NCBI GenBank assembly: GCA_964557115.1
Contig: CAZKYO010000004.1
Coordinates: forward strand, 53,892 to 117,891
DNA length: 64,000 nt
DNA from: an uncultured Gemmatimonadaceae bacterium
GTDB taxonomy: Bacteria; Gemmatimonadota; Gemmatimonadetes; Gemmatimonadales; GWC2-71-9
Direction of reading: 5' to 3'
Part shown: in pieces, positions 53,016 through 55,556 of the stretch
Position numbering within the stretch: the first letter of the stretch is position 1
Layout of the letters: the number at the start of each line of letters is the position of its first letter
The notes under the pieces: generated by a model
The model's input: the letters and a program-made list of their open reading frames with translations, nothing else
Database searches by the model: none
What the model was told of the DNA's origin: nothing
Translations under genes and position numbers: made by a program

Positions 53016-55556
53016 CTAGTGCCGGAACCCGCTGCTGAGCGGCACCACGTCGCCGGGGTTCTCGTCGCCGAAGAGCAGCTTCCCCTCGGAATAGCGCACG
53101 TCCTTCAGCGCCAGCGCGAGCACCTCGCCGAGCTCCTCGACCGGGTGCACCTCGAGCCGCTTGCGCGCCTCCTCGGGCAGGTCGTCGAGGTCGGGCTCGT
53201 TGAGCTTCGGGATGATCACGTGCCGGATCCCGGCCCGCAGCGCGCCCAGCAGCTTCTCCTTCACGCCGCCGATCGGCAGCACGCGGCCCCGCAGCGTGAC
53301 CTCGCCGGTCATCGCGATGTCGTGGCGCACCTCGCGCCCCGACAGCGCAGAGACCAGCGCCGTGGCCATCGTGATGCCGGCGCTCGGCCCGTCCTTGGGG
53401 ATCGCCCCGGCGGGGACGTGGATGTGCACGTCCAGGTCGAACCGCTCCTCGGGGATGTGCAGCGCGGCCGCGTGCGCCCGCGCGTAGGTCCAGGCCGCGC
53501 GGGCCGACTCCTTCATCACGTCGCCGAGCTGGCCGGTAAGCACCAGCTCGCCCTTGCCGCGCATCGTGGAGGCCTCGACGAACATGATGTCGCCGCCCAT
53601 CGGGGTGTAGTACATCCCCGTGGCCGTGCCGACCTGGTCGAGGGTGCCCTTCTCCTCCGGATGGAGCTTGGGGCGGCCGAGCAGCTCGCGCACCATCGCC
53701 GGGGTCACCTCGGCCCGCTCGATCTCCTTGCCGGCGATCTGGCGGGCGACCTTGCGCGCGACCCGGCCGATCTCGCGCTCGAGCTGCCGCACGCCGGCCT
53801 CGCGCGTGTAGCGCTGCACCAGCTCGAGCAGCGCCGGGCCGGTGAAGGTGATCTGTCCCTCTGCGAGGCCGTTCTGGATCAGCTGCCGCGGCACCAGGTA
53901 GCGCTCGGCGATGGCGACCTTCTCGGCCTCGATGTAGCCGGAGAAGTCGACCACCTCCATCCGGTCGAGCAGCGGCCCGGGGATGTTCTGGATGAAGTTC
54001 GCCGTCGCGATGAACATCACCTCGGACAGGTCGAACGGGATCCCGAGGTAATGGTCGGTGAAGGAGTCGTTCTGGGCCGGATCGAGCACCTCGAGCAGCG
54101 CCGAGGCGGGATCGCCCTGGAACGAGACGCCGAGCTTGTCGACCTCGTCGAGGAGGAAGACCGGGTTGCGGGTCCCCGCCTGCTTGAGCCCCTGGATGAT
54201 CCGTCCCGGCATCGCGCCGACATAGGTGCGCCGGTGGCCGCGGATGTCCGCCTCGTCGCGCGCGCCGCCGAGCGAGACGCGGACGTACTTGCGCCCCATC
54301 GCCCGGGCGATGCTCTTGGCGACCGAGGTCTTGCCGACGCCCGGAGGGCCGACGAAGAGCAGGATCGGCGACCGGCGGCGCGCCTCGTCGGTGTCGGCGG
54401 GACGTGAATGGTGATTGGTGATTGGTGAATGGGAGTCTTCCGCGGAGCTCGGAGCGCCGGTGTCGACGGCTCCCGAGGCGCCTTCCGATTCACCATTCAC
54501 CATTGACGATTCACCTGCCGAGGCATCCTGCTGTGCCCGGAGTGCCCGGACGGCAAGGAACTCCAGCACGCGGTCCTTCACCTCCCCGAGGGCGTAGTGA
54601 TCCTCGTCGAGGATCGCCGCCGCGGCCGGGATGTCGATGTGCTCCTCGTCGCGCTCGTTCCACGGCAGCTCGGCGACGTGCTCGAGGAAGGTGCGGATGA
54701 CCTGGGACTCCATCGACTCCCGGCCGATGCGCCGGAGGCGGGCAAGTTCGCGGTCGACCTCCTTGCGTGCCGCCTCGGGGAGCTCCAGCTCCGCGAGCCG
54801 CTCGGCGAGCTCGTCGTCGGTGGCGTCGTCCTCCTCGCCCAGCTCGCGACGGATCGTCTTGAGCTGCTCGCGGAGGTAGACCTCGCGCTGACGCTCGCCC
54901 AGCTCCTCCTGGACCTGGCTCTTGATGTCCTCCTGGGCGTCGAGCACGGCGATCTGCCGCTGCACGTGCACCAGCACGCGGCGGAGACGCTCGTCGACGG
55001 CCAGGGTCTCGAGCAGCTCCTGGCGCTGCGGCGTCGAGAGGTCGAGGTAGCCGGCCACCAGGTCGGCGAAGCGACCGGGGTCGTCGATGCCGTTGAGGAC
55101 CTGCTGGACCACCTCCTCCGGGAGGCCGGACTTCTGGCCCAGCTCGGCGGCCCGGGCCCGGAGCTCACGGTAGAGCGCCTCGAAGCCGGGGTCGGCCGGG
55201 TCGACGGCCGGGAGGTCTTCCATCTCCCGCAGGGTGGCGGTGAGGTAACCGTGTTCCTCGGAGACCTGCAGCGCCATGCCGCGCCGCTCGCCGTGGAGCA
55301 GGAGCTGGATGCCGCTCATCCCGCGCTGGACCTGGCCGATCCGGGCGATCGTGCCGACGCGGTAGAGCCCCTCCGAGGCCACCTGCTCGACGTTCTCGCG
55401 CTGGGCGAGGGCGAACACCAGCTTCTCGGGCGTCGCGAGCGCCGCCTCGATCGCCTTCAGGGTCATCGGGCGCCCGGCGCCGATCGGCGACGTCACACCC
55501 GGAAACAGCACCACGTCCCTCAGGGGAAGGACGGGAATCGTCATGCGTTCACTCAC
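53016..55556 (-). CDS. lon: ATP-dependent Lon protease (LonA)
   Basis: [15 protein letters not shown]-domain, Walker [10 protein letters not shown], Walker B FLLDEVDK, protease site [12 protein letters not shown] with catalytic Ser. GTG start (alternative ATG 55544). Confidence 0.95.
54404..54515. repeat. heptad-arm palindromic element (GGTGAAT/ATTCACC family) inside the lon reading frame
   Basis: gtgaatg gtgattg gtgattg gtgaatg gg - 52-nt spacer with its own inverted repeat around GTCGAC - cgattca ccattca ccattga cgattca cc. Translated on the minus strand as [10 protein letters not shown]...[10 protein letters not shown], immediately N-terminal of the Walker A segment. Confidence 0.9.

Follow-up and report, generated by a model that had tools for sequence, protein, structure and literature searches.

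How a repeated DNA palindrome can come to lie, in a readable form, within a protease gene is the question raised by the lonA gene found in a 64,000-nucleotide stretch of DNA from an uncultured Gemmatimonadaceae bacterium (contig CAZKYO010000004.1); the whole of this stretch is hereafter called the window. Just before the Walker A motif of its AAA+ module, this gene contains two arrays of tandem 7-nt units (heptads), complementary to each other and separated by a spacer, and its open reading frame (ORF) runs through both of them. We consider it likely that the segment is a heptad palindrome, similar in behaviour to REP sequences and to MITEs (miniature transposable elements with inverted repeats), which became fixed in a permissive linker of Lon and is translated as a loop, a stop codon having been purged from it.

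Homologs assign the source organism to the order Gemmatimonadales. The product of the gene matches solved LonA chains over its full length (E = 2e-206) and contains the motifs GPPGVGKT and PKDGPSAG, while the Pfam domains LON_substr_bdg, AAA, Lon_lid and Lon_C were detected on lon orthologs. The features that define LonA, a substrate-binding N domain, an AAA+ module with a Walker A motif and a C-terminal Ser-Lys protease, are all found here in a single chain. On the plus strand, opposite to the one encoding Lon, positions 54403-54430 read CGTGAAT GGTGATT GGTGATT GGTGAAT, and positions 54488-54515 read ATTCACC ATTCACC ATTGACG ATTCACC. Tandem Repeats Finder reports period-7 arrays at 54404-54432 and 54488-54515, of 4.1 and 4.0 copies respectively, and an inverted-repeat search gives arms of 37 nt each (54398-54434 and 54484-54520), 81% complementary and 49-57 nt apart.

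These data confirm what had been proposed from the letters of the DNA alone (the sequence-only reading), namely that the lon ORF passes in-frame through a complete repeated palindromic element made of four GGTGAAT-type heptads and four complementary ones; the spacer, given there as 52 nt, measures instead 56-57 nt. The ORF is uninterrupted across the palindrome and the encoded segment, G348-R385, coincides with the roughly 38 low-complexity residues which that reading had placed upstream of the Walker A motif; 17 residues separate the two. At the RNA level the palindrome is predicted to fold with -55.6 kcal/mol (z = -3.9) on the lon sense strand, and with -68.8 kcal/mol (z = -5.1) on the antisense strand. 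Coordinates of the element, of its parts and of related features are collected in Table 1.

Table 1. Position and properties of the lon element and of related heptad palindromes (window coordinates, unless another locus is named)
Feature	Position	Strand	Details
lonA	53016-55556	minus	intact ORF of 846 aa, comprising N domain, AAA+ module and Ser-Lys protease domain
lon palindrome, whole	54398-54520		imperfect; heptad arms plus short outer extension; inverted repeat with 37-nt arms
Arm met first by lon	54488-54515		sense GGTGAAT CGTCAAT GGTGAAT GGTGAAT; codons 348-357
Spacer	54431-54487		57 nt, GC-rich, with a small stem inside it; roughly codons 358-375
Arm met second by lon	54403-54430		sense ATTCACC AATCACC AATCACC ATTCACG; codons 376-385
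Walker A motif of Lon	54327-54350	minus	GPPGVGKT, residues 403-410; columns G403-T410 invariant
Best-preserved intergenic member	60082-60188		(GGTGAAT)x4, 50-nt spacer, (ATTCACC)x4; adjoins amidohydrolase stop, upstream of E1 dehydrogenase gene
GGTGAAG-type palindrome	39549-39650		fills gap between convergent SDR and FG-GAP gene stops; -67.7 kcal/mol, z -8.5
GAGATTC-type palindrome	52932-53013		follows the lon stop; exactly fills gap from GGDEF gene stop to lon stop; -61.1 kcal/mol
GCGACAR-type palindrome	57828-57921		around central GC hairpin; between kinase stop (TAG) and E1 dehydrogenase stop
GCGACAC/CTGTCGC palindrome	19980-20081		between convergent stops; -77.7 kcal/mol, z -8.7
GAGATTC-type palindrome	17246-17338		3' end of dnaE2-like gene
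CGAGATT-type palindrome	13418-13490		directly upstream of methyladenine glycosylase gene
GGCGACR-type palindrome, in-frame	14675-14746		residues 192-215, PHP region, of dnaE2-like DNA polymerase III alpha gene (14102-17257, plus)
GAGATTC/CGCGAAT-type palindrome, in-frame	44443-44559		residues 150-189 of PabB-like chorismate-binding enzyme gene (43994-45382, plus)
Heptad palindrome after lon stop, L001	2928-3043
Heptad palindrome after lon stop, L002	5277-5360
Heptad palindrome after lon stop, L207	4748-4864
Heptad palindrome after lon stop, L208	3758-3810
Heptad palindrome after lon stop, L031	8323-8453

The lon palindrome belongs to a family well represented in the window, where about ten heptad palindromes of three unit types were found, most of them between genes and directly next to a stop codon. 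When 2 mismatches at most are allowed, GGTGAATGGTGA matches the window 21 times, against 2.4 expected, and none of 100 shuffles reached this figure. Period-7 arrays number 15 in the 64 kb, as compared to 71 in 1.41 Mb of other Gemmatimonadota and Acidobacteriota lon loci, several of which contain heptad palindromes with units of their own, such as GGGAATC in L078. Intergenic placement close to a start or stop codon holds for 7 of the about ten window copies, the lon copy being an exception. Intergenic copies adjoin stop codons or themselves provide them: the dnaE2-like gene, for instance, ends at a TGA (17255-17257) which falls within the second heptad of the palindrome found at its 3' end. 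The best-preserved intergenic member, whose flanking genes were named by Pfam, folds with -75 and -77 kcal/mol (z -6.8 and -8.5) and contains stops in all six frames.

A palindrome arisen by chance from an ancestral low-complexity linker, or by mis-assembly of a metagenome bin, is extremely improbable. All Lon proteins of the clade do have long, low-complexity linkers, and the window probably derives from a metagenome-assembled genome; but heptad matches are nine-fold above the shuffled expectation, both strands fold with markedly negative z-scores while lon linkers devoid of heptads give values near 0, the ORF is intact, and independent assemblies obtained from other samples (L001, L002, L003 and L207) contain, in identical position and frame, a palindrome related to that of the window.

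Sequence comparison of the linker separates what is due to the element from what preceded it. Thermus Lon (7p6u) aligns with the window protein in two blocks, residues 4-340 of the query with 6-344 and residues 391-817 with 348-775, so that about 50 residues are found in the window Lon where Thermus has 3. The earlier remark that Lon proteins pass to the Walker A segment with no such block holds for this distant comparison, but not for the clade itself: in the 120 closest Lon proteins and in 85 lon loci, the stretch from LAV to GPPGVGKT is long (29-117 aa), variable and of low complexity. A long linker is thus ancestral in the Gemmatimonadota/Acidobacteriota clade, and the element fills a tolerant site, rather than having created the linker; since a variable linker is the rule at this position, only the central 38 residues or so are to be ascribed to the element. 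Repeats of various sorts accumulate at this site, other tandem repeats being present in the linkers of L018, L033/L034 and L077 (VPPDRPSA twice, KDS/KDA runs and PKEAPKEAPK, respectively).

Among the 85 lon loci, a significant hairpin accompanied by a period-7 signal was found only in the window, L001, L002/L003 and L207. In L001, L002 and L207 (proteins P0004, P0007 and P0006), the site that the element occupies in the window contains a short-spacer palindrome of GGTGAAG type, read in the frame used there and encoding the peptide AGEGERVKGDGE…SPSPITLDPSP; P0003 has a matching peptide signature. The state of P0003 and P0005 was judged by peptide signatures. The block would be an ancestral peptide, as the sequence-only reading had recognized, if orthologs free of the palindrome shared it. 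This is not so: the linkers of L004, L005 and L208, which are just as long, contain no heptads and no homologous peptide at their centre. In a neighbour-joining tree built with the linker left out, the window groups with P0002-P0008; three branches of this clade have the element, which is not evident in P0002, P0005 and P0008.

Reading such an element in-frame is constrained by its own sequence. Three or more tandem GGTGAAT units contain a TGA in each of the three frames, while the complement, ATTCACC, is open in all of them. Translation of a canonical GGTGAAT array in the lon frame would give GEW*MVNGES, where Lon has GESSMVN: the in-frame TGA is changed to TCA, and TGG to TCG. Of the six frames of the lon copy, only that of lon is open. 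In L001 the same in-frame TGA has been lost through a different change, from GGTGAAG to GGGAAAG. GC content at third codon positions (GC3) is 0.40 in the arm read first, 0.78 in the spacer and 0.30 in the arm read second, against 0.96 in the gene outside the linker; the arms, then, have not adopted the codon usage of the gene, and their foreign composition counts in favour of a family element.

Two other palindromes of the window are also translated, so that 3 of the about ten complete copies lie in-frame within genes, each in a loop or interdomain stretch. The copy in the dnaE2-like gene folds with -71.7 kcal/mol (z -8.7) and has no stop in any frame; most orthologs feature just a few residues at its site, and some have other insertions there. 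The copy in the PabB-like gene (-63.9 kcal/mol) lies between the N-terminal and chorismate-binding domains, with a GC3 of 0.58 versus 0.91 elsewhere in the gene; E. coli PabB (1k0e), the sole comparison for this copy, has 15 residues where the window protein has 37.

Separately, the dnaE2-like gene of a related contig, L086, was seen to be broken at the same site (6589-6680), where a perfect palindrome of a plain type, GGGCGCAGCATGCTGCGCCC, occurs together with a frameshift and a TAG in-frame; the disruption may be real or a sequencing error, the assembly apparently being a long-read one. Many database dnaE2-like homologs begin or stop near the element site. An interruption caused by the element was considered for such split calls in relatives and discarded, as L086, the one examined, contains a palindrome of a different, plain type.

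The family extends well beyond the window. A metagenome scan with the pattern (GGTGAAT)2-N35-65-(ATTCACC)2 selected at least 120 contigs, 80 of which (L087-L166) were analysed: they range from 35 to 71% GC, and their spacers are mostly unrelated. Adjacent ORFs stop 0-11 nt from the elements or within their first heptads, many of them at the TGA of heptad 1 to 3 (offsets -5, -12 and -19). Neighbouring genes are oriented in tandem in 36 cases, divergently in 15 and convergently in 12, as expected for random intergenic positions; a strict 3'-end or terminator role, which had been considered, is unsupported given this distribution.

In the metagenome Ga0136611, five GGTGAAT palindromes (L088, L117, L132, L139 and L143) share homologous spacers (z 4-15.6) and conserved ends, CGTGAAT…ATTCACG, within unrelated flanks: this set is a dispersed, MITE-like repeat family of another high-GC organism. 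A peptide search with (HSPFTIH)x6 gave 28 matches (P0241-P0268), all of them hypothetical ORFs of 37-74 aa with no domains; translated arrays called as hypothetical proteins were found in Mesorhizobium, Prosthecochloris, Aminicenantes and Cloacimonetes. The search retrieved no further large protein containing an array close to perfect. The GGTGAAT unit is, by these occurrences, common to several phyla.

Taken together, these results favour a model in which the lon segment belongs to a family of hairpin palindromes with tandem 7-nt arms, which would be genome-wide and behave like REP sequences or MITEs. The copy would have been fixed in the hypervariable linker which leads from the last N-terminal helix (…LEFLAVR) to the first AAA+ strand, and would be transcribed and translated with lon, giving about 38 residues, rich in Gly, Ser and Glu and then in His, Ser and Pro, which most likely form a flexible loop. 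Three factors may have allowed it to persist: the linker tolerates almost any length and sequence, the copy preserves the frame, and the stop and two Trp codons of the canonical arm have been swapped for Ser codons. The hairpin, of about -56 kcal/mol, would be retained in the lon mRNA. It is followed by GUCCCGCCGAC and lacks the U-tract which, together with a GC-rich hairpin, marks an intrinsic terminator; the ribosome must therefore unwind it. No terminator-like site, as judged by the U-tract, was found at any heptad palindrome between 52800 and 60300, and an Rfam scan of the 38-64 kb region gave only sub-threshold, microRNA-like matches (E 0.09-0.8) at intergenic copies.

Several observations weigh against this model. 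A canonical element, when freshly inserted, would carry a TGA in every frame, so that insertion requires either a previously mutated copy or quick repair. The spacers of the three GGTGAA-type copies of the window are not significantly alike, and similarity over the whole length, which reaches z 4-15.6 in the MITE-like set of Ga0136611, is at best z 2.2 among them; copy-and-paste within the source genome is therefore not demonstrated. No direct repeat or target-site duplication was seen on inspection beside 54398-54520, and no RAYT or other transposase was found by Pfam scans covering 16 selected ORFs of the window. As to the loop, residues 354-390 are coil in an AlphaFold2 model of Lon, but this model, based on a 59-sequence alignment with all rows at least 72% identical, is unreliable as a whole (mean per-residue confidence, pLDDT, 51) and too poor to support disorder specifically.

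Turnover of the palindromes downstream of lon also counts against insertion. There, the heptad unit which surrounds a central GC hairpin differs in every close relative, and L004 and L005 have a plain hairpin only; such intergenic copies therefore turn over fast, and this variation could reflect growth in place. According to this alternative, a small hairpin would be extended by 7-nt replication slippage, the second arm being templated by the first within the same strand. The unrelated spacers of the window copies are in agreement with it, as are the over-representation of heptamers in bacteria and the polymerase-slippage hypothesis (Mrazek 2007, as cited in PMC4692102). For the lon copy, however, 7-nt steps shift the frame, which makes stepwise growth within an ORF nearly impossible; in addition, the lon arms and intergenic copies of the same genome use one unit, and dispersed copies with conserved interiors do occur elsewhere. 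We regard growth in place as quite unlikely to account for the lon element.

Arm conservation is the other major difficulty. Among L001, L002 and L207, whose synonymous divergence (dS) is about 0.5, 91% of arm positions are invariant, versus 42% of the spacer and 32% of the flanking linker (Fisher p = 3e-12); third codon positions within the arms are invariant in 16 of 19 cases, as compared to a gene-wide fraction of 0.556 (p = 0.009). A pure passenger is not predicted to behave in this way, and such conservation was unexpected. Selection at the nucleic-acid level would provide an explanation, the hairpin being possibly kept as a site where translation pauses after the N domain and before the AAA+ module, as an RNase processing or stability site, as a thermosensor-type structure in a heat-shock gene, or as a DNA binding site similar to REP and BIME sequences. 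AT-ending codons are indeed kept in a gene with a GC3 of 0.83-0.96, and the hairpin is still significantly stable.

The same pattern, however, is observed outside lon: at intergenic loci which are orthologous to each other and belong to unrelated genes (L142/L161 and L135/L162), arms are conserved and spacers are not, so that conservation of the arms is a family-wide trait, not one specific to lon. Moreover, the sister lineages P0002, P0005 and P0008 manage with no element, the lon arms pair at 81% as opposed to about 85-90% in intergenic copies, and the L002 hairpin folds worse than that of L001. Maintenance by selection on the lon hairpin is thus unlikely, and the element is more probably a passenger than a regulator. 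The arms also differ between the window and L001, one arm at heptad position 7 and the other at position 1, which is complementary to it, in 4 of 4 units each: a difference involving all units is one between subfamilies, not the outcome of scattered point mutations, and reflects either independent acquisition or conversion.

A broader view may also be taken, in which heptamer palindromes are a multi-phylum class of self-propagating hairpins, their arms held fixed by a factor reading 7-nt units or by hairpin-templated conversion, serving in this lineage as a recurrent source of protein loops, with the lon hairpin itself under selection at the nucleotide level; we mention it as conceivable, though rather doubtful.

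REP and BIME repeats are imperfect palindromes of 20-40 nt, with a conserved GTAG-type head and an associated RAYT transposase. The lon arms consist instead of tandem heptamers over 28-37 nt, with no GTAG head, and the defining feature of the REP class is not found. In a wider sense, REP/BIME and MITEs such as ERIC, BOX and Correia form hairpins, are mostly extragenic, often at gene 3' ends, and are occasionally fused in-frame to ORFs (PMC10969869); the present family resembles them in being composed of abundant, hairpin-forming elements, mostly located outside genes, with some in-frame.

The parallel drawn by the sequence-only reading with the Rickettsia palindromic elements (RPEs), to which a different repeat architecture had been attributed, fits in behaviour. 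RPEs (Ogata et al. 2000, as described in PMC10969869) are repeated palindromes found both between genes and in-frame within unrelated housekeeping genes, where their translation adds a peptide stretch with no loss of the host protein. Here too, copies are intergenic and in-frame in unrelated genes, lon, dnaE2-like and PabB-like, whose proteins are not destroyed, and several genes per genome are affected, 3 of the about ten copies in 64 kb being of this kind; the two additional in-frame copies thus strengthen the parallel. In contrast, RPEs share a conserved sequence of about 100-150 bp and a conserved peptide, where the present elements have common 7-nt units, a free interior and a low-complexity peptide; RPE hosts have reduced, intracellular genomes, and not those of free-living, high-GC Gemmatimonadales; and, unlike in RPEs, one arm type contains stops in all frames, which need purging. 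Homology in sequence with RPEs is not expected, as host, GC content and architecture differ. By defining features, the lon element is not assigned to the RPE, REP or MITE families.

Closest in architecture are the heptamer repeats of Xanthomonas (GGGAATC) and Nostoc (GGGGAYT), which prefer about four units (Rehm et al. 2015, PMC4692102); most of them lie between genes, at up to about 50 bp from a start or stop codon, while a smaller part overlaps ORFs, and in Xanthomonas 70-75 cases of two nearby convergent arrays are reported (PMC4692102). Arrays of about four 7-nt units, arranged as inverted pairs, in a family mainly located near start and stop codons, are also found here, and L078, a Gemmatimonadaceae locus, uses the very unit of Xanthomonas. 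GGTGAAT contains no GGG tract, however, and the G-quadruplex interpretation of the Xanthomonas and Nostoc repeats is therefore not applicable; in addition, the phylum is another, and here a complete inverted pair is translated in the interior of conserved genes.

Cyanobacterial STRR sequences and the TAACTGA heptamers of Beggiatoaceae form abundant intergenic arrays; similarly to the present family, they have stops in one orientation and are open in the other, the few copies in ORFs being in the open orientation (PMC4679880). They are, however, essentially direct arrays, with one inverted case in 170 sets (PMC4679880), while the spaced inverted pair is the rule here. In the library searched, no paper was found with GGTGAATGGTGAAT or tandem GGTGAAT, and none linking Gemmatimonadetes with heptanucleotide repeats. 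The combination of convergent heptamer pairs with in-frame reading of the type seen in Rickettsia appears to be new.

We know of no function or spreading mechanism for bacterial heptamer repeats. The present finding would tie them, poorly understood as they are, to the Rickettsia phenomenon, and would extend the occurrence of selfish palindromes within proteins from reduced intracellular genomes to a free-living, high-GC soil phylum. With three in-frame copies in 64 kb, and coding and intergenic members adjacent to each other, the window offers natural test cases, through which the gain of loops by proteins, the steps making a stop-laden repeat readable, and a possible factor reading 7-nt units could be studied. 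On the practical side, gene callers are misled by these elements, since no frame of the ATTCACC strand contains a stop, and many database "hypothetical proteins" of 40-70 aa are nothing but translated arrays.

In the window, the ORF of the E1 dehydrogenase (57924-60173, minus strand) includes 44 extra codons (60041-60173) running through the ATTCACC arm (…HSPFTIHHS…) of the neighbouring palindrome; its ortholog in L004, of 705 aa, is consistent with a start at M45, at about 60041. In the acidobacterial locus L048, a single unbroken array of 212 nt (6575-6786) contains about 30 GGCGTGA heptamers and has no inverted partner. Within the 2.6 kb lying between two heptad palindromes of the window (17340-19975), no ORF with the GC3 pattern usual for the genome and no Pfam match were found. 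Finally, a tandem repeat of different period, 33 nt in 4.4 copies with 84% match (a 66-nt period was also scored), is located at 42309-42454, within the ORF 42202-42918 on the minus strand.

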